From contig OZ244922.1 of the NCBI GenBank assembly GCA_965221905.1, positions 2,148,845 through 2,212,844 of the forward strand: a stretch of DNA of 64,000 nucleotides, read 5' to 3'. Below, one piece after another: positions 828-54,082 of this stretch. The notes beneath the pieces were generated by a model that did not search any database, was not told where the DNA came from, and saw nothing but the letters and a program-made list of their open reading frames with translations. This DNA is from Chloroflexota bacterium (GTDB lineage Bacteria; Chloroflexota; UBA11872; VXOZ01). Position numbers and translations under genes: made by a program. The first letter of the stretch is position 1; every line of letters begins with the position of its first letter.

Positions 828-1808
828 ATGCAGCCGAAAGTCTATATCACGCGCCGAATACCGGAGTCAGGGATCAAGCTTCTCCAAGAGTCGTGCGACG
901 TGGAAATTTGGGATAGCGATGACGTTGTTCCGCGCGACGTGTTCTTAAAGGCAATTTCCGATAAGGACGCCGTGCTCTGCCTCCTAACGGATAAAGTCGA
1001 TGCCGAGACCATGGACGTCGCCAAGAGTGTAAAGATCTTTGCCAACATGGCCGTTGGTTTCGACAATATTGACGTTGAAGAGTGCACCAAGCGCGGCGTC
1101 ATGGCCAGCAATACTCCTGGCGTGCTTACGGACACAACTGCCGACTTTGCTTTCACGCTGCTGATGGCCACTGCACGCCGCATTCGCGAGGGGCATGAGT
1201 TCATTCAAGCCGGGAAGTGGGAAACTTGGGGGCCCCTTTTGCTCATGGGGCAAGATATCCATCACGCCACGCTGGGCTTGATTGGATTGGGCCGTATTGG
1301 GACGGAAATGGCCCGGCGGGGTCAGGGATTCTCAATGCGTGTGCTCTATAACGACGTAGTGCGACGGGAAGACCTTGAGCAGGAACTCAGCCTGGAGTAC
1401 GCCGACTTTGATACGGTGCTGCGGGAATCCGATTTCGTGAGCATGCACGTGCCGTACATGCCTGCGACGCATCATCTAATCAGCACAGAGCAGCTTGCAA
1501 TGATGAAGCAGTCAGCCGTGCTCATAAATACTGCCCGCGGTCCGATTGTCGATCCGCAGGCTCTTTACACTGCACTGAAGTCAGGTGAGATTTGGGCGGC
1601 AGGACTAGACGTCACCGATCCCGAGCCTATCCCGATGGACGATCCGCTGCTCACGTTGGACAACTGCCTGATCGCGCCGCACATTGCCAGTGCCAGCTTC
1701 AATACCCGCAGCGATATGTCTGAGTTGGCCGCGAACAATATCCTGGCCGCACTCTCCGGCGAACGCCCACCCACAATCCTCAACCCCGATGTGCTGGGGA
1801 ATTCCTAG
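828..1808 (+). CDS. D-isomer-specific 2-hydroxyacid dehydrogenase (glyoxylate/hydroxypyruvate reductase-like)
   Basis: N-terminal KVYITRRIP and NAD-binding GLIGLGRIGTEMARR (GxGxxG) are typical of this family. ATG 828 is preferred over the in-frame TTG 801 because it has a GA-rich Shine-Dalgarno upstream. Confidence 0.8.
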   Translation: MQPKVYITRRIPESGIKLLQESCDVEIWDSDDVVPRDVFLKAISDKDAVLCLLTDKVDAETMDVAKSVKIFANMAVGFDNIDVEECTKRGVMASNTPGVLTDTTADFAFTLLMATARRIREGHEFIQAGKWETWGPLLLMGQDIHHATLGLIGLGRIGTEMARRGQGFSMRVLYNDVVRREDLEQELSLEYADFDTVLRESDFVSMHVPYMPATHHLISTEQLAMMKQSAVLINTARGPIVDPQALYTALKSGEIWAAGLDVTDPEPIPMDDPLLTLDNCLIAPHIASASFNTRSDMSELAANNILAALSGERPPTILNPDVLGNS

Positions 1809-1964
1809 TCTGCTTGTTCGTGCTCTGTCGTCTATTCAGACGATTATCAGGAAGGCGACTGAAGGGCATGGCAGTGTCATGGGGCTTGCGCTGGGATCCT
1901 GAGTGCCACGCATGCAGCATGGACGTGCCGCCTAAGACGAGTTCTTATCCTCGGCGGACTGTGT

Positions 1965-3134
1965 CTACCAGGGCAGCACACGCAACCGCTCCCGCGCGGG
2001 AACCCGGAAGACAGGCGGCATAGCGTAGGTCTTCACACGGCTGTGTACGGCAATGCTCTGCAGCAAACCAATGCCAATGAAGGTAGCAACCAGAGCGCTA
2101 CCGCCGTACGAAAGGAATGGCAAGGGTATTCCGGTTACGGGCAAGAGCCCGATGATCATTCCAACGTTTACGAAGGTCTGCAAGAATATCAGCGCCGCCA
2201 CGCCAACTGCAATATTCTGTCCAAAGTGATCGCGGGCGCTTGTAGCAATCATCGTAGCGCGAATGAGCAGCACCGCAAACAGCGTCAGCACAAGCGCGCT
2301 GCCGATAAAACCTAGCTCCTCGGCCAAAACGGCAAAGACAAAGTCCTTGTGTTGCACGCGCAAATACTCGAGCTGTGTTTGCGATCCCTGAAATAGCCCT
2401 CGGCCCCAAAGCTCTCCTGCGCCAACGCTGATTTGCGCCTGGAGCACGTTGTAACCAGCACCGAAGGGGTCGGCCGTCGGATCAAGAAAGGTGGTAACGC
2501 GTTCCCACATGTAGTCTTTAATTCTTATGAGCTGTAAGAAGACAGCGGCTAACAAGCCGATTGCCACACCAATCAAGTACCGGAAGGGCACGCCGGCCAT
2601 GAAGACCATCACCCCCCAGATTCCAAGGAACATAAGCGTCGTGCCGAGATCCGGCTCTCTATAGACCAAGAACGCCGGCACGGCGGTGATAATCATGGAT
2701 CCAAAGAAGCAACGTATATCCTCCGCCCGTTGCGACCCGGCGCTAAAGTAATGCGCTAGTACCACAATCAGAGCTATCTTTGCGAATTCAGAGGGTTGCA
2801 ATGAGAAGGGGCCAATCAAGAACCACCGCTGCGAGCCCCCGATAGATACCCCGGCATAGAGCACCGCAAAGAGCAAGAGCACAGATCCTCCGTAGCCAAT
2901 CCAGGCCAAGCTACCCAGCCAACGGTAGTTCAGCTTAGGGGAAACGGCAAGAATTACAATGCCAATGCCGAGGAACACACTTTGTTTGATGACGTCGATA
3001 GACGTCCCGGAATCGAGGAGCGTTGCACTGCGAATGAGGATTATACCGATAGTCGCAAGAAGCAGAGCTGCGGCCGTGAGCCAGTAGTCGTAGAGCTTCC
3101 ACTTTCGTATTGCAATCATGCTATAGCTTAGCAC
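1965..3134 (-). CDS. rodA: Rod shape-determining protein RodA (SEDS family)
   Basis: Polytopic membrane protein of the FtsW/RodA family. It overlaps the 3' end of mrdA by 14 nt and is the last gene of the mre operon. Confidence 0.85.
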   Translation of the reverse strand: MLSYSMIAIRKWKLYDYWLTAAALLLATIGIILIRSATLLDSGTSIDVIKQSVFLGIGIVILAVSPKLNYRWLGSLAWIGYGGSVLLLFAVLYAGVSIGGSQRWFLIGPFSLQPSEFAKIALIVVLAHYFSAGSQRAEDIRCFFGSMIITAVPAFLVYREPDLGTTLMFLGIWGVMVFMAGVPFRYLIGVAIGLLAAVFLQLIRIKDYMWERVTTFLDPTADPFGAGYNVLQAQISVGAGELWGRGLFQGSQTQLEYLRVQHKDFVFAVLAEELGFIGSALVLTLFAVLLIRATMIATSARDHFGQNIAVGVAALIFLQTFVNVGMIIGLLPVTGIPLPFLSYGGSALVATFIGIGLLQSIAVHSRVKTYAMPPVFRVPARERLRVLPW

Positions 3135-4977
3135 TCCTAGCAGACTCGAAATAGAAGCGGGTCATCTTATCGGCAATCGGGGCTGCAAATTCGGAACCCT
3201 CACCGGCATCGTAGAGCACCACGGCAAAGGCGATCTCGGGTTCATCGAATGGCGCAAACCCGTTAAACAAGGCGTGTGTCGGCAGGAAACCATTCTCATC
3301 ACGAGGGCCGGGGAATTCTGCCGTACCGGTCTTACCGGCTATTCCAAACGGGTTCGCTGCTATCCGGATCGCAGTACCGCGCACCACCACATCGCGCATT
3401 GCGTTTCGGATAACTGCAAGCACCTCTGCGGAGAATGGCAATTGGCGAGCCACTTGCGGTTCGATTGGCTGCCCTTGCGTGCCGTCAGCGCCCCGTATCT
3501 CAGCAGCAATCCTAGGGTACATCAATTTCCCGCCATTTGCAATAGCCGCGGAAAAGTTGGCAAGCTGCAACGGAGTTGATAAGACATCACCTTGCCCAAT
3601 GGCTGTGTTGTATGAGTCGCCTTGGAACCAAGGCTCCTTTTTGATACGCTGCTTCCGTTCAGGTGTTGGAATGAGACCATCCTGTTCACCGGGCAGATCA
3701 ATGCCGGAAATCTGACCAAAGCCGCTTGAAGTCGCGGCCCGAGCAAGCGCTTCCGGCCCGATGCCCTCAAAACCCGTATGGGGATTGCCGCCAACCAGGT
3801 TATAGAAGCACACATCGCAAGAATTGACCAAACCTTCGTAAACATTCAAGAGTCCGTGTCCGCTGCGCTTCCAGCACCCAAACTCCCACCCTCCTGCAAG
3901 GATCAGGCTGCCTCGACACTCAAACTGTGTTTCCAAGTCCATACCATGATTCTCAAGCCACTCAGCAAGGCTTACAAGCTTGAACGTTGAGGCCGGCGGA
4001 TAGAGCCCGCCAATAGCATGGTTGACCAGAGGTCGCGACGGATCGTTGGCTAGTCGCGCATAATCCTCCTCAGAAATAGATTGGGCGAAGAGATTGTTAT
4101 CGAAGCCAGGCAGGCTAACCAGGGCACGAACCGCTCCTGTGGCTACGTCTAGCGCTACAACGGCGCCGGAGGGCGCTCCTGAATCCGAAAGTCCGTCTTG
4201 GAGCATTTGCGTAACCGCAGCCTGGAGATCCAAGTCCAAACCCAACACAAGGTTGTTACCGGGTTGGGATGGCGTCTCATGGAGAACACGGATGGTTCTC
4301 CCATATGCGTTGACCTCCACGTTTCTCTGACCTTTTTTCCCGTGGAGCTCTGCCTCATAGATGGACTCGATGCCTGCAATGCCAACTTGGTCATCGCGTT
4401 CGTAGCCTCGGTTCAGATAGAATTCAGTTCGCTCATGGGGGATAGGGCCCACGTACCCTAAAATGTGACCGTTGCTAACTCCTGCCGAATACTCGCGAAT
4501 AGGGCGGCTTTCCGCGGAAATACCCGGCAGGTTTGCGTTCTCTTCCTCTATGATCATGGCAACGTGACGCGGCACGTCCCGCTTCAAGATGGTCGGTTGA
4601 TAGGGACTCTGCAGGCCCTCAGTCATAAGTTCCATTATGGTTGGCGCAGGCTTCTCCAGCAGTGCTGAGAGTCGGCGGGATACGTTCTCGATCTCGTCTC
4701 GCGGCAAATCGATCATGCGAGCTACAACGCTGAAATTGGGCACATTTATGGCTACCCTTTGTTCATGTCGATCGTACACAACGCCGCGCAGCGGCTTGAC
4801 GGAAAGCACTCGCAGGCTGTTGTTCTCCGCTTGGTTGCGGAGCTCAGGACCGCGAACGATCTGGATGTACCAAAGCCGAACTACGAGTGCAAGAAACGAA
4901 AGGAGCAATACGATTCGCAGCAGGTAGAAGCGAATTACTTCGCGTCGGGTCAGCCTACGCTTCTCCTCAGCCATCAT
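3121..4977 (-). CDS. mrdA: Penicillin-binding protein 2 (peptidoglycan D,D-transpeptidase)
   Basis: N-terminal membrane anchor, a PBP dimerisation region, and transpeptidase motifs STFK, SCD and KTGTA. Sits between mreD and rodA. Confidence 0.85.
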   Translation of the reverse strand: MMAEEKRRLTRREVIRFYLLRIVLLLSFLALVVRLWYIQIVRGPELRNQAENNSLRVLSVKPLRGVVYDRHEQRVAINVPNFSVVARMIDLPRDEIENVSRRLSALLEKPAPTIMELMTEGLQSPYQPTILKRDVPRHVAMIIEEENANLPGISAESRPIREYSAGVSNGHILGYVGPIPHERTEFYLNRGYERDDQVGIAGIESIYEAELHGKKGQRNVEVNAYGRTIRVLHETPSQPGNNLVLGLDLDLQAAVTQMLQDGLSDSGAPSGAVVALDVATGAVRALVSLPGFDNNLFAQSISEEDYARLANDPSRPLVNHAIGGLYPPASTFKLVSLAEWLENHGMDLETQFECRGSLILAGGWEFGCWKRSGHGLLNVYEGLVNSCDVCFYNLVGGNPHTGFEGIGPEALARAATSSGFGQISGIDLPGEQDGLIPTPERKQRIKKEPWFQGDSYNTAIGQGDVLSTPLQLANFSAAIANGGKLMYPRIAAEIRGADGTQGQPIEPQVARQLPFSAEVLAVIRNAMRDVVVRGTAIRIAANPFGIAGKTGTAEFPGPRDENGFLPTHALFNGFAPFDEPEIAFAVVLYDAGEGSEFAAPIADKMTRFYFESARSAKL

Positions 4978-5068
4978 CTCCTCCTGGAGACTTCAGCACC
5001 GCATGGCGACGACTGCGCCGCTTGTCGACCTCTTCGCCACCTGGCGACCTCTTCGTCGCTTGGCAACA

Positions 5069-5584
5069 TTAGCGTCTCCTGGCACTTGAGCTTCCCGAGG
5101 TCACCTCGAGGAGGCGAAATCCTGCCAGCACTATGAGTGGCGCGAAGGCCGCATTCATTAGTGCCGTCGGCAATGCCATTTGCAGGAGCATATCGCCAAA
5201 CGAAAACCGATAGTCGAACGTGATGAGCAAAGCGCCTAAGAGAACGAAATAAACGAGGGCTACCCAAAGAGACGTTACTGCCGCCACTACTATCCGGTTC
5301 GGCTGCACGATGCTTACAGCAAACCCTCCCACAAAGCCCGCCACCGTAAGTGCTAGGGCGCTTAGACCCCAATGGGCATCAGAGAAAGCATCGATTAGTA
5401 ATCCGCCTACAAAGCCCCAGCCCGCGCCGCCCGCCGGCCCATACCAAAGCGCCAACAGCGTAACGACTTGCAGCATAGGCAACCATACGATGCCGAATAG
5501 CGGAAAGTGCCACACCACGCTAGCCTGCACCAAGGCAGCCATCATCATCACGATCACTATGGCGGGGCGGGAGACGTCGTTCAT
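5069..5584 (-). CDS. mreD: Rod shape-determining protein MreD
   Basis: 171-aa multi-pass hydrophobic protein placed directly after mreC with a 4-nt overlap. Confidence 0.7.
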   Translation of the reverse strand: MNDVSRPAIVIVMMMAALVQASVVWHFPLFGIVWLPMLQVVTLLALWYGPAGGAGWGFVGGLLIDAFSDAHWGLSALALTVAGFVGGFAVSIVQPNRIVVAAVTSLWVALVYFVLLGALLITFDYRFSFGDMLLQMALPTALMNAAFAPLIVLAGFRLLEVTSGSSSARRR

Positions 5585-6447
5585 TGAGTCGGCCCTGAGA
5601 AGTCCCGGTCCTCGAGCGGCAGCGGCACAAAATTCGCAACTACCATCACATGTTCCAATTGCGAGAAATCTACCAACGGCTCAATCTCTGCGGTTTGAAA
5701 CTCCTCGTAGTCCTCTTGCTGCACGTTTTTTACTCTACCCAGCACAAAGTCTTTTGGTAGGCCTCCACCCATGCCGCTCGTAACCACAATGTCGCGCTCG
5801 TTGAGCTCTTCGGTCTGCAAGACATAGCGCATTTGGAGATGTCCATCGGGCGTGCCATAGACAATGCCGAAAGTGCGGCGCAGGCCGCCCTGAACGACGG
5901 CATTGACCGCACTGGAGGGGCTGGTAATTAGTTGCACCTTCGACCAATGTGACGAAACTCTGGTGACTTTCCCAATGACACCGAGATGAGTCACAACGAC
6001 CATGCCCTCCTCTACTCCTCCGCTACTGCCAATGTCAATGATGATGACGTCTAGAATATTTGTCGCATCCCTGCCAATTACCTGGGCGGGAAGATGGACC
6101 CACTTTGAGTTTGCTTGAACGTATCCCAGTTGCTCGCGGAGTGTGCGGTTCTCGATTTCAGCACCGCGCAAGCTGATGATTTCCTGATAGAGCTTCTCTA
6201 CGTCTTGTCGCAGCACGGCATTCTCTTCACGGAGATTCCTCGTTTCCTGGAACGAGCCCAAGACGTAGGCGGCGGCTCCGGTGGTCGAATCGAGGGCGCG
6301 TTGCACCGGAACCGCTACAAAAGCTACTGCACTTTCCACAGGTCGCAACCAACCTTGGCGCGAAAGGAAAATAAGCAGAACTGCGGCAACAATGAGGAGT
6401 GCAAGCCTCAAGGCCAAGGCCTGCGGTTGGAGGTTAAAGTCACGCAT
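5581..6447 (-). CDS. mreC: Rod shape-determining protein MreC
   Basis: Single N-terminal TM helix, a coiled-coil region and a C-terminal beta domain; immediately downstream of mreB. Confidence 0.8.
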   Translation of the reverse strand: MRDFNLQPQALALRLALLIVAAVLLIFLSRQGWLRPVESAVAFVAVPVQRALDSTTGAAAYVLGSFQETRNLREENAVLRQDVEKLYQEIISLRGAEIENRTLREQLGYVQANSKWVHLPAQVIGRDATNILDVIIIDIGSSGGVEEGMVVVTHLGVIGKVTRVSSHWSKVQLITSPSSAVNAVVQGGLRRTFGIVYGTPDGHLQMRYVLQTEELNERDIVVTSGMGGGLPKDFVLGRVKNVQQEDYEEFQTAEIEPLVDFSQLEHVMVVANFVPLPLEDRDFSGPTQ

Positions 6448-6470
6448 TGTGTCTCAGCCGGCACCCAATT

Positions 6471-7562
6471 CTAGGGGGCTACATGCGCGTACTCTCGTGC
6501 ATCGGAAACGAAGAGCTTTTGGTAGAATTCGATGTCGTCGAGGCACTCACCTGTGCCAAGTGCAACACAGGTGAGCGCGTTTTCTGCTACGACGACCGGT
6601 ACAAGCGTTTCCTCAGAAATTCGCTTGTCTATTCCCCCGAGGAACGCCCCACCTCCCGTAAGCACAATGCCCCTATCCACAACATCACTCAGCAATTCGG
6701 GTGGGGTTTCTTCAACAGATACCTTTACCGCTTCGACGATATCATGCACTGGCCCTTCAATAGCCTCACGCATCTCTCCTTGAGTCACAAGCACCGTCTT
6801 GGGGAGCCCGGAGAGCATATCCCGACCGCGCATCTCGAAGGTCTTTTCCTGTTCGTCGGGCAAGGGATACGCAGCGCCTATCGCTATCTTGCTTTCCTCA
6901 GCAGTGCGTTCACCAATTAGGAGGTCGTACGCTTGGCGGGCATAGTCAGTAATCGTCTGATCGATCTCATCACCGGCAATGCGAACTGAGCGTCTGACAA
7001 CGATCCCGCCTAGAGATATTACCGCCACCTCTGTGGTACCGCCGCCAATATCCACAATCATGTTGCCTGCGGGTTCGTCGACCGGCAGACCTGCCCCAAT
7101 AGCTGCCGCCATCGGCTCCTCAATCAGATATGCTTCGCGTGCACCTGCATTGATTGCAGCATCTTGCACCGCACGCTTTTCCACTTCGGTCACACCACTG
7201 GGAATACCCACGATGACCCTTGGGCGCGGCACCAATTGCACGGTTGTGTGTACCCGATTGATGACGTAACGAAGCATTGTTTCAACAGTTTCAAAGTCTG
7301 CAATTACGCCATCTTTTAGGGGCCGCACGGCCACGATATTTGAAGGAGTGCGGCCAACCATCCGCTTTGCCTCCGCACCGACGGCGAGCACGCGTTTCGT
7401 CCGCAAATCCATCGCGACCACTGAAGGTTCGGAAACTACAACACCCTTATCTCTTGCATACACCAAGAGATTCGCAGTGCCGAGATCAATTCCAAGATCC
7501 TGGGAGAAAAGACCGAGAAAAGAGCTAAACGGACCGAGAATACTTGATCGCCAAGAAGACAT
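6471..7562 (-). CDS. mreB: Actin-like rod shape-determining protein MreB
   Basis: Carries the GIDLGTANLLVY phosphate-1 motif and is conserved along the whole length with MreB. Has an N-terminal extension of about 20 aa. Confidence 0.9.
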   Translation of the reverse strand: MSSWRSSILGPFSSFLGLFSQDLGIDLGTANLLVYARDKGVVVSEPSVVAMDLRTKRVLAVGAEAKRMVGRTPSNIVAVRPLKDGVIADFETVETMLRYVINRVHTTVQLVPRPRVIVGIPSGVTEVEKRAVQDAAINAGAREAYLIEEPMAAAIGAGLPVDEPAGNMIVDIGGGTTEVAVISLGGIVVRRSVRIAGDEIDQTITDYARQAYDLLIGERTAEESKIAIGAAYPLPDEQEKTFEMRGRDMLSGLPKTVLVTQGEMREAIEGPVHDIVEAVKVSVEETPPELLSDVVDRGIVLTGGGAFLGGIDKRISEETLVPVVVAENALTCVALGTGECLDDIEFYQKLFVSDAREYAHVAP

Positions 7563-8286: not shown

Positions 8287-9126
8287 CTACCCGACACCGG
8301 ACTCTTCCAGCTTGGTCATTGTTTCGCGGTAGCGCCGATCCATTTCCGGCCCCTGTCGACTCAAGTATTCTTGCTCCAGAGCACGCGCAACCGTAGTAGC
8401 CGCTGCCGCCGGTATGTCTATTTCTGCAAACGTAATCTTGTCATAGCCGCGTTGATACGCGACCACTTCGCCCTTGCTTACAATGAGATTCTGACCGACG
8501 TTGGCCTGCACGATGGGCACGCCGTTCTCGCGAGCGCGGGCTAAGACCGCCTGGTTTTGCGCCTTGCTCTTATTGCCATAGGTCGGGATAAATAGGACTT
8601 GCGCGCCGTCGAGAACTATCGATCGGGCAATGAGAGGTTCCCAGCGGTCGTTGCAGATAAGCATGCCGGCGCGACCAAGGGGTGTGTCAAATGCACGCAG
8701 CTTCTTGCCAATGCGGTTGAAATGCCAGGATGGATGTGTGCCTTCCGCAAATTGGCTCTTCTGATACGTGCCGCATAACTCCCCCGTGTGATCGATAAAG
8801 ACCACCGTATTATAGATTCCGTTATCCGTCCGCTCGGCAAATCCAAAGCAGAGGCATACGCCGAGTGATTGGGCCAGTTGGCGAAAGTGCCTCACGTAGG
8901 GTCCGTCTAACGGTTCCGCGATCTCCAGCATCTCGTCGGCTGACCGTCTACCCTCGATGACGTCGTAGACAACGTAGCCTTCAAGAGCGCCCTCGATTGT
9001 CACGATCACTTCGGGTGCTTCTGCAGCCGCTTCGCGAATGAACCGCTCCATCTTTGCCGCATTATATGGCTTATCCCACTTCTTCGGTCGCAACGAGATT
9101 GCTGCCGTTTTGATCGTCGTGAACAT
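8287..9126 (-). CDS. Carbon-nitrogen hydrolase (nitrilase superfamily)
   Basis: Glu-Lys-Cys triad context, with the catalytic Cys in GMLICNDRWEP. Confidence 0.75.
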   Translation of the reverse strand: MFTTIKTAAISLRPKKWDKPYNAAKMERFIREAAAEAPEVIVTIEGALEGYVVYDVIEGRRSADEMLEIAEPLDGPYVRHFRQLAQSLGVCLCFGFAERTDNGIYNTVVFIDHTGELCGTYQKSQFAEGTHPSWHFNRIGKKLRAFDTPLGRAGMLICNDRWEPLIARSIVLDGAQVLFIPTYGNKSKAQNQAVLARARENGVPIVQANVGQNLIVSKGEVVAYQRGYDKITFAEIDIPAAAATTVARALEQEYLSRQGPEMDRRYRETMTKLEESGVG

Positions 9127-9448
9127 TTCGCACCTACCTTCTCGGCCTTCAAGTAAGCAGTAATCAGAGTGTCTGCATCTCTACGGCAACGCATGTCCCA
9201 AACGCAGAGCGTCCATGTGGTCGCGCACCCCTACGACGAAGCGACAAGTGCGGGATCGACGAGAAATACGAGCTAGAACATGACGGGAACATTGCTAATC
9301 CGGAATCATCGGGAAGCTACGCCGGTTTGAGCGGTGCACAGCCAAATATCAGTGCATGCGCAAAGACTTCTGCTAACAGGACCGAGAAATACTTAGCAAG
9401 AGAAGCCAACGGATTACGTCTAAATGCGAATCAGGCCCACTGCTCTGC

Positions 9449-10930
9449 TCATGCGAGCTCTGCTACTGCCCCTGCGAAGGCATCTATTGCCGATTTAATC
9501 CGTGTAAGGGTTCGCTCCCGGCCAAGTACTACCATAGTCTCAAAGAGCGGCGGCGTGGCAGTCTTGCCCGTAATCGCCACGCGGATGGGCATAAAGAGCT
9601 GTCCTGCCTTCCACTCCAAGTCGGCGGCTAATCCACGCAGGCAGACTTCGATATGCTCAAGATTCCAATCCTCAAGAGACTGGAGATTGTCGTACGCGCG
9701 CTCCAACGCATCCAGTGAATCTGACGGGGACTGCTTTTTCGCAACGAGGAGTTTCGGTTCGGGCGTCACGTCATCAGCAAAGAAAAAGTCAAGCACCGAT
9801 GGCGCTTCAGCGAGATTCTTCAGACGCTCCTGCTCAAGCGCAACTGCGTCGCGAACGTAGGACCGGTCGACTTTGTCCGGATCGATCATGCCGGCCTCCG
9901 CCAGGAATGGGACAGTGCGGTCTGTTAGGTCATCCACGGTAAGGCTGCGGATATAGACGCCATTCAGCCAAATGAGCTTTTGTAGCTCGAACACCGCATT
10001 GGCTCTGTTGACACGCTCCAGGCTAAATGCAGCTATCAACTCATCTAAACTAAATTTCTCTTGGGTATCGCCAGGGTTCCAGCCAAGCAAGGCCAAGAAG
10101 TTCAAGACTGCCTCGGGCAGGTACCCCTGTGTAGCGTAGTCGCCTACCAAGACGGCGCCAGAACGCTTGCCTAGTTTTGTTCGGTCCGGATTTGTGAGTA
10201 AAGGGAGGTGCGCATAGGCCGGCAAATCAAAGCCCAGAGCGCGCGCGATTGGGATTTGCCGGTGCGTATTGTAGAGGTGATCGGCGCCGCGGATGACGTG
10301 GGAAATCTGCATATGGCTGTCATCGATCACAGACGCAAGATTGTACGTGGGCATGCCGTCAGCGCGCACTATCACTAGGTCATCGAGCTCAGAGGACTCG
10401 ACCTTCATGTCTCCACGTACGAGATCGGTAAAGGAGACCGTCCCCTCGCGCGGCGACAGAAAGCGAATCACGGAACGGGTGCTTGATCGCTCTCGCGCCT
10501 CTCGCTCTGCATCAGTGAGATGTAAGCACGTCTCCGGATACCGGAAGGGACGCCGTTCTTTTTGGGCTTCCTTGCGCAGTGCGTCAAGCTCTTCCGGTGT
10601 ACACCAACACCGGTATGCATGACCGTTTTCCAAGAGCTTCTCAGTACAACTTTGATAGAGCGCCAGACGCTCGCTTTGGCGATACGGCCCAAAGTCTCCA
10701 CCTGCCGCATACCCTTCGTCCCAGTCCAAGCCCAGCCAGCGGAAGCTCAACAAAACACCTTCAACATCCTCATCCGTTGAGCGTTTCGCATCGGTGTCAT
10801 CGATGCGAAGAATAAAGGTCCCACCGATCTGGCGGGCAAAGAGGTAATTGTACAGTGCCGTGCGGGCATTGCCTACGTGGAGATTGCCGGTGGGGCTAGG
10901 CGCTATACGCACGCGGACAGGATTAGCCAT
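9449..10930 (-). CDS. gltX: Glutamate--tRNA ligase
   Basis: HIGH-type motif PSPTGNLHVGNARTALYN, and class I GluRS architecture along the full length. Confidence 0.9.
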   Translation of the reverse strand: MANPVRVRIAPSPTGNLHVGNARTALYNYLFARQIGGTFILRIDDTDAKRSTDEDVEGVLLSFRWLGLDWDEGYAAGGDFGPYRQSERLALYQSCTEKLLENGHAYRCWCTPEELDALRKEAQKERRPFRYPETCLHLTDAEREARERSSTRSVIRFLSPREGTVSFTDLVRGDMKVESSELDDLVIVRADGMPTYNLASVIDDSHMQISHVIRGADHLYNTHRQIPIARALGFDLPAYAHLPLLTNPDRTKLGKRSGAVLVGDYATQGYLPEAVLNFLALLGWNPGDTQEKFSLDELIAAFSLERVNRANAVFELQKLIWLNGVYIRSLTVDDLTDRTVPFLAEAGMIDPDKVDRSYVRDAVALEQERLKNLAEAPSVLDFFFADDVTPEPKLLVAKKQSPSDSLDALERAYDNLQSLEDWNLEHIEVCLRGLAADLEWKAGQLFMPIRVAITGKTATPPLFETMVVLGRERTLTRIKSAIDAFAGAVAELA

Positions 10931-11179: not shown

Positions 11180-11269
11180 GGCGGAGAGGGTGGGATTCGA
11201 ACCCACGAGGCGCTTGTGGCGCCTACTCGCTCTCCAGGCGAGCGCCTTCGACCACTTGGCTACCTCTCC
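11180..11269 (-). tRNA. tRNA-Ser (anticodon GGA), type II with long variable arm
   Basis: Folded by hand on the reverse complement: acceptor GGAGAGG/CCTCTCC, anticodon stem CTCGC/GCGAG with loop CTGGAGA, long extra arm, T-arm GGTTCGAATCC, discriminator G, CC encoded. Lies upstream of gltX on the same strand. Confidence 0.85.
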
Positions 11270-11454: not shown

Positions 11455-13314
11455 ATGCATCGGTTTGCGCACATGCCGAGGGCTTCCTGTCGGTTGACAG
11501 ACGGCTTCAACCAAATCTACCATAACAGTTACAGCGACACCGCATGCAAGCTATTCCTCACGTTCATAATCAAGTGCATGTCTCAGATTGCGGAATCCTC
11601 CTCTACGCTCATAGCAGACGTCGGTACCTTCAGCACGCGTATCTCTCTCCTAGAGCGCGTTGAAGGGGACTTTCGGCTCGCTGGCGCTGCGCATGTGCCT
11701 AGCACGATCGATCCTCCGATATCCGATGCGATGCTCGGCGTTTCGCGCGCTCTTGCGGAACTGGAGCGCACCACAGGATGGTCCGCCGGACAAGAATCCG
11801 TCACCAAGCTCGCAGTCACCAGCGTAGGGCTTACCGTTGTTACCAGTGTGCTGAGCTTGGGCGACAGCCGCACCTTGAATGCGATGCTCGAAACTCTGCA
11901 AGCATCGCCCATTACGCCTATAGACATCTTCGACCTCCATAATCGACCGCCCGATGCCTATCAGTTCGTGTACCAGCGACTCATAGATTCGCCGCTCGAT
12001 GCGCTCATCATCCTCGGCAGCGATGCCGAGCAAGGTTGGGAGATAGAAATTGCACGGATTGGCGAAATCATTCGGAACGTGCTCGGCGCGCATCGCAACG
12101 CATGGAACGCAACCGTAGTCTTTGTTGGTTCCACGGCTCACGCACAGTTCCTGCGAACTTTTCTTGGCGAGCGGGCAATGCTTCATCACATGGAATTGGA
12201 CCCGGGCCAATCAGAGAGCGCCACCCTTGCCTCTCTCGAAGTCCTTGTGCAGTCGCTCGCCAAAGAGAGACGCCGGCTTCGGTTGCCGAATTATACAGGA
12301 TTTGCCGAGTGGGCAGAGACTGATCCAATTGACTATCAGGAAGCCCTGGGCAGTGTCACCCAGCAGCTAGCACAGCGCTACAGCATTCACGTTCTCTCCT
12401 TGGATCTTGGAGCAAGCCACGTTGCTGCGGTTTCGAGCCTACCGAATGGGGATTTGCGCAGAGTATCTCTGGATGGTTTCGGCACCCTGCGCAGTCCGCA
12501 GAATATCCTGATCGAATCCGGTCGCGAGGCCGTTGAGCGCTGGCTGCCGTACGATCTGGATGAAGACCGGCTAGATAGCTTTCTCTTGCACCGGCTTGCA
12601 CATCCCGCCGCTCTGCCGACGACGGTCGAGAGCCTTGTCTTGGAGCACGCCTTTGCGCGGGAAGCCATTCGCAGCGTGGTTGAGCTCATAGACGATCAAA
12701 CAGTAGACGGGCAGAGAACTGCGCCCTGTGCTACCGCGGATGTGGTAATTGGCTGTGGCGCAACACTGGGCGGCGCACCGCGGCTGATACAGGCAGTAAT
12801 GATGATGCTTGACTCCGTACAGCCCACCGGCTTTACGCAATTTGCCCTAGATCGAGCGGGCTCGCTACCGCTACTGCTGCTCGACAAAGCGATTGAAGAA
12901 GGAAATCCCTTTATCGAGCAGGATGTACTCTTGAGTCTCGGCGTTAGCATATCTCCGACGGGCCGCATGACCGAAAATCGCCCGGCCTTGAGTCTGCGCG
13001 TTGGCATTCCTTCTCGTTCTCCTGAGGAGTTTCAACTAAATTTTGGGGCCATGGAGGTTATTCCATGGGAGGGCGGCGCCGGCTCCAAGCTAGAAGTGTG
13101 GCCCGCTACACGGCTCGACCTTGGTGTAGGGCGGGGTCGGGGAGCCGAGCCACGTGCCAACCTCTATGGCGGCGCACTGGGGCTCATTGTTGACGCGCGC
13201 GGGCGCCCTCTCGAGCTTGATGCCAGCAAGGACAAGCGACAGGCTAAGACCCTTGAGTGGATGCAGACGACGGGGTCGTATCCCACATTGTCTTTCTCTG
13301 GGAGATCGAGCTAG
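11455..13314 (+). CDS. Hypothetical protein with actin-like/ASKHA-type ATPase motifs
   Basis: Three motifs match the ASKHA pattern: phosphate-1-like LIADVGTFSTR, phosphate-2-like LSLDLGASHVAAV and adenosine-like VVIGCGATLGGAP. A GGAGA ribosome-binding site lies upstream of ATG 11455. No confident family assignment. Confidence 0.35.
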   Translation: MHRFAHMPRASCRLTDGFNQIYHNSYSDTACKLFLTFIIKCMSQIAESSSTLIADVGTFSTRISLLERVEGDFRLAGAAHVPSTIDPPISDAMLGVSRALAELERTTGWSAGQESVTKLAVTSVGLTVVTSVLSLGDSRTLNAMLETLQASPITPIDIFDLHNRPPDAYQFVYQRLIDSPLDALIILGSDAEQGWEIEIARIGEIIRNVLGAHRNAWNATVVFVGSTAHAQFLRTFLGERAMLHHMELDPGQSESATLASLEVLVQSLAKERRRLRLPNYTGFAEWAETDPIDYQEALGSVTQQLAQRYSIHVLSLDLGASHVAAVSSLPNGDLRRVSLDGFGTLRSPQNILIESGREAVERWLPYDLDEDRLDSFLLHRLAHPAALPTTVESLVLEHAFAREAIRSVVELIDDQTVDGQRTAPCATADVVIGCGATLGGAPRLIQAVMMMLDSVQPTGFTQFALDRAGSLPLLLLDKAIEEGNPFIEQDVLLSLGVSISPTGRMTENRPALSLRVGIPSRSPEEFQLNFGAMEVIPWEGGAGSKLEVWPATRLDLGVGRGRGAEPRANLYGGALGLIVDARGRPLELDASKDKRQAKTLEWMQTTGSYPTLSFSGRSS

Positions 13315-13316
13315 CT

Positions 13317-14405
13317 ATGGCAACCATGCTTGCGCTGCGCGGCACGGCGAACCCACCGACGCCGACCCCACAGATTGGTCGTTATCTCTTGCGGTTACGT
13401 CGGGTTCTGCCAGCCGACGGCGAAATCTCCGTGCAACCCGGGGATAAAGTAGAGCCACACACCGTAGTTGGCGCTTGTTCCATAACCCCACAGCGATCTG
13501 TGATCGACTTGGCAAGCATGCTGGGTGTCTCTCCTGAGGACGTAGAAAAATCGCTCGAAGTTGCTCCTGGCGAGCGCTGCTCGGAAGGCGCGCTGATTGC
13601 CGCCCGGCGCCGCTTGCTGGGACTGCGCACACGTACAGCAATTGCCCCATTCAGCGGTCATATCGGCGCGGTCTCTTCACGTAGCGGTCTTGCTTGGTTC
13701 GAAGGCGAAAGCCGTGAGGTCCGTTTGCCTGCCGGGCTCTACGGTACCGTCATTGACGTTGTACCGCCGCGCGAGGTTGTCATAGAAGCGGACGCGGTAG
13801 TTGTGCGCGGCGTGTACGCTGTTGGAGGGGAAGCGTCCGGCAATCTAACCACGGTCCTTTCCCAAGGGTCCAATAGCGAAGAGCGGCTCATTCTTGTATC
13901 CCGCGAGCCGGCTACCGTTGAAGTTATGCGGCGCGCCGCCCAACTTGAAGCCGCCGCTGTGGTGGCCCCGTCCGCTGCACGCAAGGACATGGCCGTGCTC
14001 GGCATGGACCCGCTGGCCCGCCCGACGTCGCATGGGTGGAAAGGCCCGCCGCTCCTACTGACGGAAGGTTTCGGCGAGCACCCCATGACGGACACGCTCT
14101 GGGAACTCCTTACCGCCCAGCCGGTGCCATGGGCAACTGTGGTTGCTCGACCCGACCTGCACGTCTTCCTGCTGATTCTGCCAATTCGTTCGCTCGCGCC
14201 GAAAGACGCCTGGACGCGCTTCGGCCCCGGCTCTCGGCTCAAGCGCGCCGGCAAGTCGGTGGAACCGGGAGAGGTGCGTTTGGACGCCTTCATGCCGTTC
14301 CCACTGGCTGTCCCCTCCGGTCTGCGGCTCCCCGCCGCAGAGACCATCGATGCCGATGAACGCCGCAGCCGCGTGCCCCTTTCAGAACTGGAGTGGCTGA
14401 TGTAG
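13317..14405 (+). CDS. Hypothetical protein, translationally coupled to the preceding gene
   Basis: ATG 13317 follows the upstream stop by 2 nt and has a GGGAGA ribosome-binding site. No recognisable motifs and no TM helices. The in-frame extension to 13257 is unlikely. Confidence 0.4.
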   Translation: MATMLALRGTANPPTPTPQIGRYLLRLRRVLPADGEISVQPGDKVEPHTVVGACSITPQRSVIDLASMLGVSPEDVEKSLEVAPGERCSEGALIAARRRLLGLRTRTAIAPFSGHIGAVSSRSGLAWFEGESREVRLPAGLYGTVIDVVPPREVVIEADAVVVRGVYAVGGEASGNLTTVLSQGSNSEERLILVSREPATVEVMRRAAQLEAAAVVAPSAARKDMAVLGMDPLARPTSHGWKGPPLLLTEGFGEHPMTDTLWELLTAQPVPWATVVARPDLHVFLLILPIRSLAPKDAWTRFGPGSRLKRAGKSVEPGEVRLDAFMPFPLAVPSGLRLPAAETIDADERRSRVPLSELEWLM

Positions 14406-14815: not shown

Positions 14816-17800
14816 GTGGCAAGCCGAAGTCACCTATATTCCTTGGTCCGATTCTGCCTGGCTGCCATGCTTGCTTGGCTCGCATCCGTTCAGGCCACAC
14901 GCGCGGACGGCTCCGTCGTCATCAACGAAATCTCACCGGGCGACGTCGCTGGAACGTCCAGTTGGATTGAGCTGCACAATACTAGCGACTCTGAGACCGC
15001 TGAAATGGGCTTTTGGCGGCTTGACGCTGAGAGTGAATCTGCCGAGAACTCCCACTACATCTCACTCGACGCTGCCATTCCTCCGGGCGGATACCTCGTA
15101 TTTGAGCGCACCACGACGCAGCTGACAATTGCCCGAAGCGGCACTATTCGCCTCTTGGATCTCGACGAGACTGTAGTGGATCAGACCGACTATACGGTTA
15201 CTGAAGGCGGTGTAGCAATTGCACGGATTCCGGATGGCTCGTCTAACTGGGTGGTTGTTTCAAAATCGACTAAGGGATCATCGAACGCAGTTTCTACACC
15301 AACACCGACCCCGACACCCACACCATCGCCTACGCCGTTGCCTACGCCGTTGCCTACACCCACTCAAACGCCTACACCGACCCCAACACCCACACCATTG
15401 CCAACACCCATACCATCTCCTACGCCCACACCTACACCGTCGCCTACGCCGACCCCGACACCGTCGCCCACACCCACACCATCGCCAACACCCATACCAT
15501 CTCCTACGCCGACCCCGACACTGTCGCCTACACCCACACCATCTCCTACGCCGACCCCGACACTGTCGCCTACACCCACACCATCGCCAACATCCATACC
15601 ATTACCTACACCGTCGCCAACGTCCACACCATCACCTACACCTACACCATCGCCAACGCCTACACCTACGCCGTTGCCTACTCCAACCCCTACGCCAACA
15701 CCCACACCGACACCAATGCCGCTTCCCACACCCAACAGTTCAATCGTCATCAACGAAATCTTTTCTCTGCATGCCAGGCAGGTCCAAGCCGAAGCTCTTC
15801 TCAACCGCGGTCTTGCCCGATTTGCTTTCAATTCAATTGGGAAGCAAGTCAATGAATCACAGGGCTGGGTCGAGTTCTATAACAATGGATCTTCTACCGT
15901 GGACGTGAGCCAATGGTTCCTGGATATCGGTGAAGACACCGGCGACAGGCCTTACCAAATTCCGATCGGCACCAAAATCGCACCTGGCGCATTCTTGGTC
16001 TTTAAGGAAGCAACGACTATATTTCGCATATTTCAGCGGGGCAGAATTCGTCTCCTTGATCTCTACGGCACAATTGTCGATGAGCACGACTATGACACCA
16101 ATGGGGCCACGGGAATTGCGCGAATGCCGGATGGTGCGGATAGCTGGGTAGTCGCATCGGCGCCGACTAAGGGAGAGCCAAACATTGTGCCATCCCCCAC
16201 TCCATCGCCAACACCAACCCCGACACCCTTGCCGACACCGAGGCCTGCCCCCAAGCCGCCCCCACCCACTCCGTCGCCACATCCGACACCGCCTCTGCCG
16301 CTGTCGCTTCGCATAACGGAGGTCTACTACGATGGGCAAGTCTCTCGGACAGAGGGCGATGAATTCATCGAGATCCAGAACCAAGGTACTGCCTTGGCGC
16401 ATCTGGCTCAAGTGCGCGTCTTGGTGAAGAGCGAGCAGGCCGATAGTCCCGTTGTTTACGGCTTCTACGCCGACAATGTGCTCTCGCCGGGAGACATCTT
16501 TGTTATTGCAAAGAATGCCCGTCAATTCGAGGAGCAATTCGGCTTTCGCCCAAGTTTTGAAGCCCGTTTCTCGGGAACCGGCTATGAAGATACGGAAAAC
16601 GTGCGCAACATGCTCCATGAGCGTGAATCGTCGCGGCGCACGTGGGCATTGGCCAATACAGGCGCTGTTGTAGCCTTGATCGGCGATCACGGTACGGTCA
16701 TCGATGCCGTAGCTTACGGCCATGATCCCGGCGGGTACCTTGGTCTACAGGGCGACTATCCATCCGCGTCCGGCGGTCAGTCACTCCTGCGTGTGTCTAC
16801 TGTGGGCGTGAGCGGACGCATGCCATCGGCCTTACGGGCAGATACACCTTCACCGGGCATCGTCCCGCCATCTCCCACCCCTACTCTTCCCACTCCCACA
16901 CCGATACCTTTGCCTTTACCGACGCCGAGGCCTGCCCCCAAGCCGCCCCCGCCCACTCCGTCGCCACACCCGACACCGCCTCTGCCGCAGTCTCTGCGCA
17001 TAACGGAAATCTACTACGATGGGCAGGTCCCTCGGACAGAGGGTGATGAGTTCATCGAGATCCAGAACCAAGGTACGACTTTAGCGTACCTGGCTCGAGT
17101 GCGCGTTTTGGTGAAGAGCGGGCAAGCCGATAGTCCCGTTGTTTACGGCTTCTACGCCGACAATGTGCTCTCGCCGGGAGACATCTTTGTTATTGCAAAG
17201 AATGCCCGTCAATTCGAGGAAAAATTCGGCTTTCGACCGAGTTTTGAAGCCCGTTTTTCGGGAACCGGCTATGAAGATACGGAAAACGTGCGAAACATGC
17301 TCCATGAGCGGGATACGTCGCGGCGCACGTGGGCATTGGCCAATACGGGCGCCGTAGTGGCCTTGATCGGCGATCACGGTACGGTCATCGATGCCGTTGC
17401 TTACGGCCATGATCCCGGCGGGTACTTTGGTCTACAGGGCGACTATCCATCCGCGTCCGGCGGTCAATCACTCCTGCGTGTGTCTACCGTGGGCGTGAGC
17501 GGGCGCATGCCGTCGGCTTTACGCGCAGATACACCTTCACCGGGCATCGTCCCGCCATCTCCCACCCCTACTCTTCCCCCGCCCACACCGATACCCTTGC
17601 CTTTACCGACGCCCATTACGCCCACGCCTTCACCGACGCCTTCGCCAACACCGACGCCAGTTCCCCCTTCGCCTACTCCGACGCCTTTGCCTACTTCGAC
17701 GCCTTCGCCAACACCGGCGCCTATTCCTCCCACACCATCACCGACGCCTTCGCCAACGCCCATTCCTCCCACTCCAACGGCAACAGTCCTGCAGTGCCTG

Positions 17801-18445
17801 ACAGAATTTCCGAGTCAGGAGCCGACGCGGCTGGTGCGCGTGGTTGGCACTGTGACGGAGATCCGTGAAATGCCGCAAGAAATTCGCGTCTACCTTGCCG
17901 ACGATTGCGGTGGCGCCGTTTTGCATTTGGCGGTAGATGCTTCGGCTCCTCCGGTCGGCAGCCAAATCCGGGTTACTGCCCTAGGCTCACTAAGGAATTT
18001 GCAGATCGATCTCTATGTTGCGCCTGAAACCAGACTTGAGTTCCTGCCGGGGACGTCTCAACCACAGGCAATCCCCTTCATGCAGGCAATGCTCCAACGT
18101 GCGCTAACCGGGACGCGGGTTCGGTCGGCGGGCAACATCACGCAAACTACTGACATCACAGTGGATGAGATCTATGATTCTGTTGCCAGCTATGTCAGGC
18201 TTGACCCTCACGCGCAAGCAGTCCCAATTGGCCCTGTGGTTTTCTACGGCATCCTTGAATGGCGCGAAACGGTGCCATTGCTCCGCGTACACTACGTCGT
18301 TCCCGCGAAAGCACGCATATCTACGCTCTGGGAGAGTTTTCAGGACTGGCGAGTGACACGCATCGCCGCGCAGTACGTGCGTGACACCGTCAACGCTCTA
18401 ATCATGCGATCACTTACCCGCGGCAGAAGCACCTCTTTGCCATGA
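14816..18445 (+). CDS. Secreted multi-domain protein: four lamin-tail domains, Pro/Thr-rich linkers and a C-terminal OB-fold-like region
   Basis: Signal-peptide-like N-terminus ending VQA. Lamin-tail-domain signatures recur four times ([10 protein letters not shown]...[14 protein letters not shown]...WVEFYNNG, and twice LRITE[VI]YYDGQ...[11 protein letters not shown]). Long (P-[TS])n linkers separate them. The tail [10 protein letters not shown]...[11 protein letters not shown] looks like an OB fold. The start is GTG; alternative starts are possible. Confidence 0.7.
15290..15735 (+). repeat. Low-complexity Pro/Thr/Ser codon repeats (CCN-ACN units) encoding linker 1 of the lamin-tail-domain protein
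   Basis: About 150 aa of (P-T/S)n. The complementary strand gives spurious Gly/Val/Asp-rich ORFs. Confidence 0.8.
16225..17612 (+). repeat. In-frame tandem duplication, period 687 bp, about 2.05 copies at about 95% identity
   Basis: AGGCCTGCCCCCAAGCCGCC occurs at 16241 and again at 16928. The encoded 229-aa units (lamin-tail domain plus flanking PT linker) differ at only about 10 residues. Confidence 0.85.
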
Positions 18446-23994: not shown

Positions 23995-24534
23995 ATGACC
24001 TCTCGTGCCATGCGTCTGACGATAGGTGCTCTTGTTGTCGTTATAGGGCTCCTAGTCATTGGAGGTGTAGCATGGGTGAGCCTGGCCGCTGAAGGCCCGG
24101 AGCAGCCCATTGCCTTTATGCACACAGTGCATGTCGAGCAAAACGACATTGACTGCGTTTTTTGTCACCGTAATGTGGAAACCGGCGCCGAGGCAACAAT
24201 TCCAGCCGTTGAACAATGCATGCTTTGTCACAGTGTCATAAATGGCGAAAACCCGAAGGTAACCAACCCCTTGCATATAGCGGAGATTGCTAAGCTGCAA
24301 GCTAACTGGGAGAACAGAGAGCCCATCGATTGGGTGCGTGTTCACGTATTGCCGGACCACGTGCGTTTCGTGCACGCATCCCATATCAAAGCAGGATTTG
24401 AGTGCGCTACGTGCCATGGTGACATCGGCTCGATGGAACGTGTTAAGCAGGTCCGCTCGCTCAACATGGGCGACTGTTTGGGCTGCCATCGGGAAAACAA
24501 CGCGCCGACCGACTGCACGATCTGTCACCGTTAG
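23995..24534 (+). CDS. actA: Pentaheme cytochrome c, ActA-like subunit of an alternative complex III
   Basis: N-terminal TM anchor and five CxxCH motifs: CVFCH, CMLCH, CATCH, CLGCH, CTICH. Confidence 0.75.
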   Translation: MTSRAMRLTIGALVVVIGLLVIGGVAWVSLAAEGPEQPIAFMHTVHVEQNDIDCVFCHRNVETGAEATIPAVEQCMLCHSVINGENPKVTNPLHIAEIAKLQANWENREPIDWVRVHVLPDHVRFVHASHIKAGFECATCHGDIGSMERVKQVRSLNMGDCLGCHRENNAPTDCTICHR

Positions 24535-24540
24535 AGGAGA

Positions 24541-26799: not shown

Positions 26800-26820
26800 C
26801 TTCAGCGGGGAGAAACGGCG

Positions 26821-28933: not shown

Positions 28934-28992
28934 GAAATCCTGCTCGCTGCAACTACTGTCTTTCGTGCGGGCGATGAAGGAGATTAATCCCA

Positions 28993-53803: not shown

Positions 53804-54082
53804 GTTACTGTGGTGGCAAGCCAACGATACGTCTTCATTCGCCAGGCAAAAGGGCAAAGTGCCGGGCAATTTGGGGAAGGTGAAGTGCTCTAATTCTTGT
53901 CCTTAGTCAGACACACTCTCTACAACGTGAATAAGCGCCTGTAGACACAGGCTCTGTTTCAAAGTCATTAGAGTTGGCGAAGTGCCGAATTATCGCAATT
54001 GCAGGATCACAGAATGTCGCACCTTTCGCAATTGAGTTGCACAGATGTGACTGATCAAGATAAGTAAGGAGAACCTAGCAAG

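Follow-up and report, generated by a model that had tools for sequence, protein, structure and literature searches.

A stretch of 64,000 nucleotides from a Chloroflexota bacterium (GCA_965221905.1, contig OZ244922.1, positions 2,148,845 to 2,212,844 of the forward strand; the whole stretch is hereafter the window, and its first letter is position 1) carries two tightly coupled genes, and the question raised by this locus is what an actin-like (ASKHA) protein and the protein encoded directly behind it do together. The first open reading frame (ORF), ORF1, encodes a long-form GlmL/MutL-family ASKHA protein with a C-terminal domain of ~110 residues that features a D-G-G-G...D-R-G-R-P signature, and the second, ORF2, encodes its partner. 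Genes of these two families are co-inherited, tightly spaced and occasionally fused. The favoured explanation, to which slightly less than an even chance is given, is that the two proteins belong as subunits to a single cytoplasmic complex that has lost its membrane partners here. The two genes of the cassette, with protein lengths in amino acids (aa), are:

11578 to 13314, plus strand: ORF1, divergent long-form GlmL/MutL-family ASKHA protein, 578 aa (from homologue lengths, Pfam, Foldseek and the ratio of nonsynonymous to synonymous substitution, dN/dS).
13317 to 14405, plus strand: ORF2, 362 aa, divergent member of a large unannotated partner family.

The ORF1 gene product passes the Pfam MutL model PF13941 (35.8 bits, E 5.1e-9, gathering score 27). 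This match spans model positions 277-429 of 450 only, and the N-terminal half of ORF1 is linked to the MutL family through alignment with the typical members, which are the long-form relatives outside the Chloroflexota clade of the window. These typical partners match PF13941 end to end at residues 14-485 (E 6e-129), and a profile of the ORF1 sequences of the clade retrieves typical MutL-family proteins of ~610 aa at E~1e-100 over profile positions 8-569. The NCBIfam models gave a different outcome. ORF1 exhibited no match at E<=1 to the equivalog NF040745 (accessory_GlmL, cut-off 475 bits) and none to the subfamily TIGR01319 (glmL_fam, cut-off 204 bits) or the Or-4 model NF040744 (cut-off 600 bits); the typical partners scored 202-230, 136-171 and 216 bits on the three models respectively, each under the cut-off.

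The AlphaFold2 (AF2) model of ORF1 is of medium confidence (pLDDT 64.5) and is predicted to contain the two RNase-H-like lobes of the ASKHA fold. Every significant Foldseek match of this model was an ASKHA protein at probability 1.0, the top match being the glycerol dehydratase reactivase alpha subunit 1nbw_A (E 8.7e-7, 10% identity, TM-score ~0.19), followed by LsrK, PilM, Ppx/GppA, glycerol kinase (GlpK) and FtsA. The domain packing of the model is unreliable because the TM-scores are ~0.2. A sequence-level search of the PDB returned no chain matching the ORF1 family, and ORF1 did not match Pfam Actin, MreB_Mbl, FtsA or PilM_2 at E<=1, all of which are matched by the real MreB of the window. 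The preliminary description of this DNA held that both proteins lack recognisable family signatures, which is wrong for ORF1 in view of PF13941 and right for ORF2, for which no family in Pfam or NCBIfam was matched. Its loose comparison of ORF1 with the GlmL/MutL/EutA-type reactivases agrees with the Pfam result and with the top Foldseek match, the ASKHA fold that it expected was found in the AF2 model, and neither gene turned out to have an orthologue of known function. Two larger regions of ORF1 can be marked:

11800 to 12192, plus strand: inserted three-layer alpha/beta (flavodoxin-like) domain, aa ~75-205, lacking the SSAGGGLQMM loop and the LSGGxDGG motif of typical members.
12970 to 13311, plus strand: C-terminal extension rich in beta structure, aa ~465-578, which the Pfam MutL model (450 positions) does not reach.

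The best-kept core of the C-terminal extension is D514-R543 (nucleotides (nt) 13117-13206), which reads LDLGVGRGRG...GG.LGLIVDARGRP. Residues P509, D514, G516, G518, G520, G535, D539, R541, R543, R554 and W561 are invariant in all long-form members.

ORF2 belongs to a family that is large and unnamed. A profile of the clade ORF2 sequences retrieved 1472 clusters at 50% identity with E<=1e-3 (705 with E<=1e-10), most of which are ~350-390 aa in length. Membership of ORF2 in the MutL-partner family (~375 aa) is seen in a full-length profile match, in the GGE..G and TEGFG motifs and in its position directly 3' of ORF1. The family hidden Markov model (HMM), in which the window ORF2 is itself included, scores ORF2 at E 1e-96; a clade-only HMM retrieves typical members at 1e-29 to 7e-34, and profiles of the typical family retrieve the clade relatives at about 1e-47 to 1e-89. 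A word-indexed homologue search with a diverse ORF2 alignment returned nearly only clade members. In public databases the relatives are named 'hypothetical protein', and several are named 'transcription antitermination factor NusG' by JGI. Four regions can be marked on ORF2:

13374 to 13691, plus strand: N-terminal barrel-sandwich-hybrid (lipoyl-like) region, aa ~20-125, with approximate limits, from weak matches.
13824 to 13841, plus strand: clade-invariant GGEASG motif, aa 170-175, in which G170 and G175 are nearly invariant among 50 diverse members.
14061 to 14075, plus strand: TEGFG motif, aa 249-253, with G251 and G253 invariant family-wide and near-invariance of T249, E250 and F252.
14214 to 14402, plus strand: C-terminal KOW/SH3-like region, aa ~300-362, from weak family-profile matches to the KOW domains of Spt5, NusG and uL24.

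Residue G143 is also invariant across the family, and R309, G317, P354 and N357 of the C-terminal region are nearly invariant. The N-terminal part of the family members exhibits weak matches to Biotin_lipoyl, RnfC_N and NQRA_N, and against the PDB the family profile shows weak N-terminal matches to domain II of Thermotoga NusG and to GcvH; there is no conservation of a lysine at the lipoyl/biotin position. Together these matches give weak signs of three regions in the family, namely lipoyl-like barrel-sandwich, alpha/beta and KOW-like. Two other identities were considered for ORF2 and rejected. A solved metabolic enzyme such as 3,5-diaminohexanoate dehydrogenase was set aside, as PDB chains match only weak lipoyl- or KOW-like stretches. 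A component of an Rnf/Nqr-type complex, an analogy drawn from a barrel-sandwich soluble subunit accompanied by two polytopic subunits of ~210 aa and one bitopic subunit, was set aside as well: hhalign of the ORF2 family with E. coli RsxC covers 42 hairpin columns only (probability 42%), and among the membrane proteins described below c211 against RsxA and c222 against RsxE fall below 1% probability, c211 and c222 being mutually unrelated.

The distribution of ORF2-like genes was obtained from a scan of one genome per species with 13 closer ORF2 sequences as queries. At least 594 species carry such a gene, among them Poribacteria, WOR-3, Zixibacteria, Eisenbacteria, Fermentibacteria, Cloacimonadota, Bacillota, Synergistia and one archaeon. 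Neighbourhoods were sampled from the 80 best of these at least 594 carriers, which are those closest to one typical member (P0041), and the genes in the sampled loci are six-frame ORFs called in this analysis. For 77 ORF2-like genes the upstream sequence spans at least 1.9 kb; 47 of them have a MutL-like gene of ~600 aa as their direct upstream neighbour on the same strand, and 5 more have it one gene away. The gaps of the adjacent pairs are mostly -40 to +80 nt. Relatives of ORF1 at 59% and 38% identity both have an ORF2-like gene directly downstream, and the 2-nt gap between ORF1 and ORF2 is kept in all three other clade genomes examined. The two families are even joined in one protein of 1003 aa (P0140), whose residues 17-489 match MutL (E 3e-110) and whose residues 656-905 form the ORF2-like region. 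The two-component unit proposed in the preliminary description is borne out by adjacency over many phyla, by the 2-nt gap and by the fusion. Two pairs in tandem are present in four Bacillota loci.

Several loci in this sample depart from the simple pair. In the Bacillota-type loci L029, L044, L056, L083 and L089, the pairs are in tandem and one partner is ~450 aa with an extra N-terminal lipoyl-like stretch, which suggests a hetero-oligomer built of paralogous pairs. The MutL-like gene at L085:8179-9963 was called as 85 aa plus 490 aa in an otherwise complete cluster, which may reflect a frameshift, an assembly error or a pseudogene. A 1262-aa 'MutL fusion' in L004 was rejected as an ORF-calling artefact of GC-rich DNA. 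Where ORF2-like genes occur without MutL (WOR-3, Stahlbacteria), a PorV/PorQ-family outer-membrane protein (NF033709, 150 bits) is often encoded next (L017, L018, L019, L041, L043, L045 at 8309-9190, L061, L064), and in some WOR-3 loci (L006, L009) a TMEM260-like O-mannosyltransferase with TPR repeats precedes the ORF2-like gene.

The typical pair is usually part of a larger unit. Across phyla, including those of the FCB group, Bacillota, Synergistia and others, a recurrent, co-directional and tightly spaced cluster of eight genes was found in the order c164-c133-MutL-like-ORF2-like-DUF6754 (PF20539)-c211-c282-c222 (loci L005-L083, for example L035:5370-12492 and L070:5349-12471). Among the pair loci that extend at least 4 kb to either side (28 loci), DUF6754 is present in 19, and the other 9 lack any DUF6754-c211-c282-c222 gene. 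This four-gene block is sometimes located 5' of the pair and is repeated two to three times in L053 and L072. The predicted numbers of membrane-spanning segments are ~3 for DUF6754, 5-6 for c211, 2 for c282, 4-5 for c222 and 1-2 for c164. No consistent match to c133, c164, c211, c282 or c222 was identified in Pfam, NCBIfam, PADLOC or the PDB, and six of the eight cluster families are absent from every protein-family database searched. A profile search of the PDB with DUF6754 identified a single Fn3-like N-terminal stretch (E 0.003). Ten proteins of the system had no PADLOC match that would indicate anti-phage defence, nothing relevant among riboswitches or other RNAs was found upstream of the clusters at Rfam gathering scores (12 loci plus the window), and no paper mentioning PF20539, DUF6754 or PF13941 was found in the literature searched, searches for GlmL giving mostly noise.

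Genes of amino-acid metabolism accompany the cluster in some lineages. In 12-17 loci the cluster is immediately preceded, on its own strand, by the glycine-cleavage genes gcvT-gcvH-gcvPA-gcvPB (among them L014, L024, L026, L035, L051, L053, L054, L059, L060, L066, L070 and L079, at ~900-5400 in each), mostly from FCB-group phyla (Eisenbacteria, Fermentibacteria and relatives). In one Bacillota-like locus, the cluster is surrounded by peptidases S58 and M55, asparaginase II and an amidohydrolase.

The window's clade differs from this pattern in its motifs and in its neighbourhood. It is ~26% identical to the typical pairs, which are 64% and 52% identical among themselves. The ASKHA motifs of ORF1 (consensus DxGxT; DxGGxT.D; GxG) are located as follows:

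11617 to 11640, plus strand: phosphate-1, DVGTFSTR, aa 14-21, aligning with DCGSTTTK of typical members.
12400 to 12432, plus strand: degenerate phosphate-2, LDLGASHVAAV, aa 275-285, aligning with VDIGGATTDVFSV of typical members.
12748 to 12780, plus strand: adenosine motif, IGCGATLGGAP, aa 391-401, aligning with GSGGVLSHAP.

Phosphate-1 and the adenosine motif are kept and phosphate-2 is altered. In alignment A7 with the typical MutL-like partners, D14, G16 and T20 are invariant, as are G394 and P401 of the adenosine motif, with G392 nearly so (GCGATLGGAP in the window vs GSGGVLSHAP). The second Gly and the TTD triplet of phosphate-2 have been lost, since DLGASHVA stands where the family has DIGGATTD, with D276 and G278 retained. 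The Gly-rich loop SSAGGGLQMM of typical members is deleted (9 residues), the second Gly-rich motif reads LGSDAEQG where typical members have LSGGxDGG, and a 19-residue insert of typical members is absent. The three motifs named in the preliminary description are thus present and correctly placed by homology, but their degeneracy had gone unnoticed there. Because both Gly-rich loops and the GGxTTD part of phosphate-2 are lost, ORF1 of this clade is probably a poor ATPase, with weak nucleotide binding or poor hydrolysis.

None of the six accessory families was matched in the 64-kb window or in the 22-kb clade locus L002, and DUF6754 had no match among the called genes within 10 kb on either side in two further clade genomes. 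In locus L001, protein P0023 is 27% identical to the window ORF1 and has the same degenerate phosphate-2, and c133-DUF6754-c211-c282-c222 lie upstream of its gene.

The cassette nevertheless consists of two real genes, and dN/dS values computed with a relative at 79-83% identity (ORF1, 0.074; ORF2, 0.079) show that purifying selection on both is strong. Close homologues form ~20 clusters per gene at 76-97% identity, and one named homologue, at 80% identity, points to a Chloroflexota host. The putative control signals of the cassette are:

11494 to 11523, plus strand: promoter-like site TTGACA-18 nt-TACCAT, 5' of the probable ORF1 start, within the 41-codon extension.
13300 to 13305, plus strand: Shine-Dalgarno-like GGGAGA for ORF2, inside the 3' end of ORF1 and ending 11 nt before the ATG (read from the sequence).

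The longest possible reading frame of ORF1 spans 11455-13314 on the plus strand (619 aa), as first described, but a protein of 578 aa from 11578 is more likely. The Met at 11578 is the start in 15 of 19 full-length close homologues, which are themselves 578 aa long; the putative promoter, a consensus match alone (10 of 12 positions), lies in the extension; and homologue P0014, which also has the extension, retains the residues over both hexamers (RLTD, YH) while the remainder of its extension is divergent. On these three grounds the true start is probably the ATG at 11578. The ORF1 stop TAG (13312-13314) is followed by 2 nt and the ORF2 ATG at 13317, which together with GGGAGA agrees with the tight coupling and ribosome-binding site described earlier; the length of ORF2 is 362 aa and not the 363 aa given there. 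The flanking genes are also where they had been placed, with the cassette divergent from tRNA-Ser, beside gltX and ~4 kb from the cell-shape operon:

11180 to 11269, minus strand: tRNA-Ser(GGA), divergent from ORF1.
9449 to 10930, minus strand: gltX.
1965 to 7562, minus strand: mreB-mreC-mreD-mrdA-rodA.

With these data, the favoured reading can be stated more fully. We infer that ORF1 and ORF2 form a complex. In typical members, the ASKHA ATPase would act on or through its partner and the membrane proteins by nucleotide-driven conformational change, in the manner of chaperone-type ASKHA proteins, and a role in the handling of amino acids or peptides at the membrane is hinted at by the neighbours (glycine-cleavage genes, peptidases, amidohydrolases). 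The window's Chloroflexota clade would have retained the soluble pair alone, and this pair, turning over little ATP, would probably serve as a scaffold or regulator rather than as a motor, being neither a B12-enzyme reactivase nor a filament system.

Several points weigh against this reading. Residues D14, G16, T20, D276, G278 and G394 are retained in ORF1, and motif loss is no proof of the loss of ATPase activity. The membrane genes could sit elsewhere in a genome of which 64 kb was seen. The partnership is not universal, since 25 of the 77 ORF2-like genes (Poribacteria, WOR-3, Stahlbacteria) have no MutL-like gene within 8 kb, and the neighbourhood sample, chosen for closeness to a single typical member, is non-random. 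The correlation between the pairwise identity matrices of the two families (r=0.93 over 44 pairs), which speaks for the pairing, is confounded by phylogenetic relatedness and by the position of the clade as an outlier. The amino-acid link consists of synteny, and since this synteny is found mostly in related FCB-group phyla it may reflect inherited gene order and not function. The AF2 model of ORF2, built on a 14-sequence clade alignment, is unusable (pLDDT 36.7), and because this model failed and the PDB-profile stretches are individually at E>1, the domain assignments of ORF2 rest on weak matches.

A broader reading, which is plausible and still on the unlikely side, takes the pair as the cytoplasmic core of an undescribed multi-phylum membrane machine that comprises DUF6754, three more integral-membrane proteins and two small accessory proteins, with the window pair as a stripped-down, catalytically decayed descendant that has a membrane-independent role. 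Such a machine would be powered by an actin-fold (ASKHA) ATPase instead of an ABC, P-type or AAA+ engine, and would perhaps be a transporter or an envelope-assembly device tied to the use of amino acids or peptides.

It is improbable that the pair is instead a two-subunit reactivating chaperone for an adenosylcobalamin enzyme of the DdrAB/GdrAB or GlmL kind, in which ORF1 would be the ATPase alpha subunit, ORF2 the swapping beta subunit and the client would be encoded elsewhere. Known reactivases are alpha2-beta2 complexes with ATP-dependent swapping of beta subunits (PMC7674605) and GlmL/MutL is described as a glutamate mutase chaperone (PMC4682846), which fits the Pfam MutL match and the best structural match of ORF1, 1nbw_A. 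This fit does not extend to the more specific NCBIfam models, which ORF1 does not match and on which typical partners score 230 against a cut-off of 475 bits (GlmL), 216 against 600 (Or-4) and 170 against 204 (TIGR01319), nor to the degenerate nucleotide-binding motifs of the clade. The inserted domain of ORF1 structurally resembles B12-binding and flavodoxin-type domains among many others, but this likeness is generic to the flavodoxin fold and no DxHxxG motif was seen in the inserted stretch. No adenosylcobalamin enzyme, glmS/glmE included, was present among the 28 window ORFs scanned with Pfam (some small ORFs were left out), and no B12 enzyme was among the neighbour families that recur in at least 8 of the 80 loci. 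The conserved neighbours are DUF6754 and five other unannotated proteins, most of which are predicted to be membrane proteins. The earlier proposal of a reactivase without an adjacent client is not supported, though family membership and the 1nbw match leave it some weight.

There is similarly little likelihood that the pair is a hydantoinase/oxoprolinase-type enzyme in which ORF1 would phosphorylate an amide or lactam and ORF2 would finish the reaction, feeding amino-acid (for example glycine) catabolism. The gcvT-H-PA-PB neighbours in 12-17 loci of other phyla and the Bacillota-like locus with its peptidases, asparaginase II and amidohydrolase would suit such an enzyme, as would the RidA, CN-hydrolase and two Amidohydro_2 genes found near the pair in the window, but these nearby hydrolases are not kept beside the pair outside the clade. 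Typical MutL-like partners exhibit weak matches to Hydantoinase_A and Hydant_A_N, though with whole-protein scores near the cut-off and no significant stretch, and the window ORF1 matches neither PF01968 nor PF05378. ORF2 has no Pfam Hydantoinase_B match, two to four integral-membrane partners would be unexpected for such an enzyme, and the catalytic motifs have decayed in the clade.

A very unlikely alternative makes ORF1 an actin-like filament former that acts with ORF2 in cell shape or segregation, tied to mreBCD-mrdA-rodA. It draws on the ASKHA fold, on FtsA and PilM among the structural matches and on the location of the pair 4 kb from mreBCD in all four clade genomes; in the three other genomes, the upstream genes rodA...mreB-ridA-CN_hydrolase-gltX are kept and the downstream genes differ. 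In the unrelated 5.2-Mb genome of locus L084, c164-c133-MutL-ORF2-DUF6754 lies between a bactofilin gene (3502-3879) upstream and mreB-mreC-mreD (15738-18189) 4.6 kb downstream. None of the other loci sampled (80) contained MreB, MreC, PBP2 or RodA. In the window, mreB lies on the opposite strand from the pair, with a tRNA gene and four unrelated genes in between, and ORF1 lacks a Pfam match to the polymerising families. A survey of the actin superfamily groups the family of ORF1 with non-polymerising enzymes and chaperones (PMC5597319). The MreB linkage, seen in this clade and in one other locus (L084), is treated as clade-specific synteny and not as a general feature, and the cytoskeletal or segregation role raised in the preliminary description is not supported. 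Barely credible is a NusG/Spt5-like transcription factor in ORF2 that is functionally unrelated to ORF1, for which the JGI names and the weak matches to KOW domains and Thermotoga NusG domain II speak, but neither ORF2 nor nine family members scanned have an NGN/NusG Pfam match, the PDB-profile stretches each fall at E>1, and pairing or fusion with MutL beside predicted membrane proteins does not suit a transcription factor.

Three other loci within the window are of separate note. The protein encoded at 14816-18445 (plus strand) is 1209 aa in length, starts with a signal-peptide-like stretch and matches the Lamin Tail Domain four times; it also has long linkers rich in Pro and Thr and two internal repeats of ~220 aa that are almost the same, and its clade relatives vary in length or place (a 504-aa Lamin Tail Domain protein in L091). 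A row of genes at 23995-30360 (plus strand) resembles an alternative-complex-III or polysulfide-reductase-like module and encodes a cytochrome c7/c3-like protein with multiple haems, a 752-aa molybdopterin oxidoreductase, the products of two further ORFs and a membrane subunit of the NrfD type. At 51446-58906 (plus strand), three paralogues in tandem (754-785 aa) each have a glucose/sorbosone dehydrogenase (GSDH) beta-propeller in the C-terminal half and an unassigned N-terminal half of ~430-460 aa.

Proteins of the GlmL/MutL type are usually annotated as helpers of B12 enzymes. The long-form branch described here is unconnected with glutamate mutase operons and is far wider than this annotation implies, with at least 594 species representatives and 705 partner clusters at 50% identity; it has a dedicated partner that is unnamed in databases and usually has membrane proteins as well. 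The public labels 'glutamate mutase L' and 'NusG' for these proteins are corrected by this analysis. If the pair does drive a membrane complex, the actin fold would be serving there in a new way, and names could be given to 'hypothetical' genes that are kept at 50-65% identity across phyla. The copy in the window is a natural experiment, a pair without membrane genes and with decayed nucleotide motifs that is still under strong purifying selection, and for this reason it can reveal which part of the function does not depend on ATP turnover or on membrane partners.

Among known systems, the window cassette is related to the GlmL/MutL kind, and the broader system may be of a new kind, a suggestion that is tentative because it rests on context alone. 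ORF1 shares with GlmL/MutL (PF13941; NF040745; TIGR01319), its closest named family, the Pfam model and the corresponding positions of the ASKHA motifs. It differs in that ORF1 and its relatives are ~580-620 aa in length, owing to the conserved C-terminal domain, vs ~450-460 aa for the GlmL models; the ORF1 family also fails the NF040745 and TIGR01319 cut-offs, is not located beside glmS/glmE and has as its partner a ~370-aa protein whose family is unannotated, and the window clade lacks several motifs that are invariant in typical members. The reactivases DdrAB/GdrAB (PDB 1nbw) give the top structural match of ORF1 and likewise consist of a large ASKHA subunit with inserts and a smaller obligatory partner (PMC7674605), but the match is at 10% identity and a TM-score of ~0.19, there is no PDB sequence match and no dehydratase client nearby, and weak evidence suggests that the 362-aa ORF2 has a domain make-up unlike that of the small reactivase beta subunit. 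Or-4 (NF040744) and EutA belong to the same ASKHA branch, and the 216 bits of typical partners on Or-4 are far under the 600-bit cut-off; the window ORF1 is unmatched, and no aminomutase or ethanolamine lyase genes lie nearby. The closest counterpart in anatomy is the undescribed c164-c133-MutL-ORF2-DUF6754-c211-c282-c222 cluster: although the window clade is ~26% identical to it, has no accessory gene within 64 kb and carries degenerate motifs, the soluble pair of that cluster is homologous to the window pair over its full length and is encoded in the same order with the same tight spacing.

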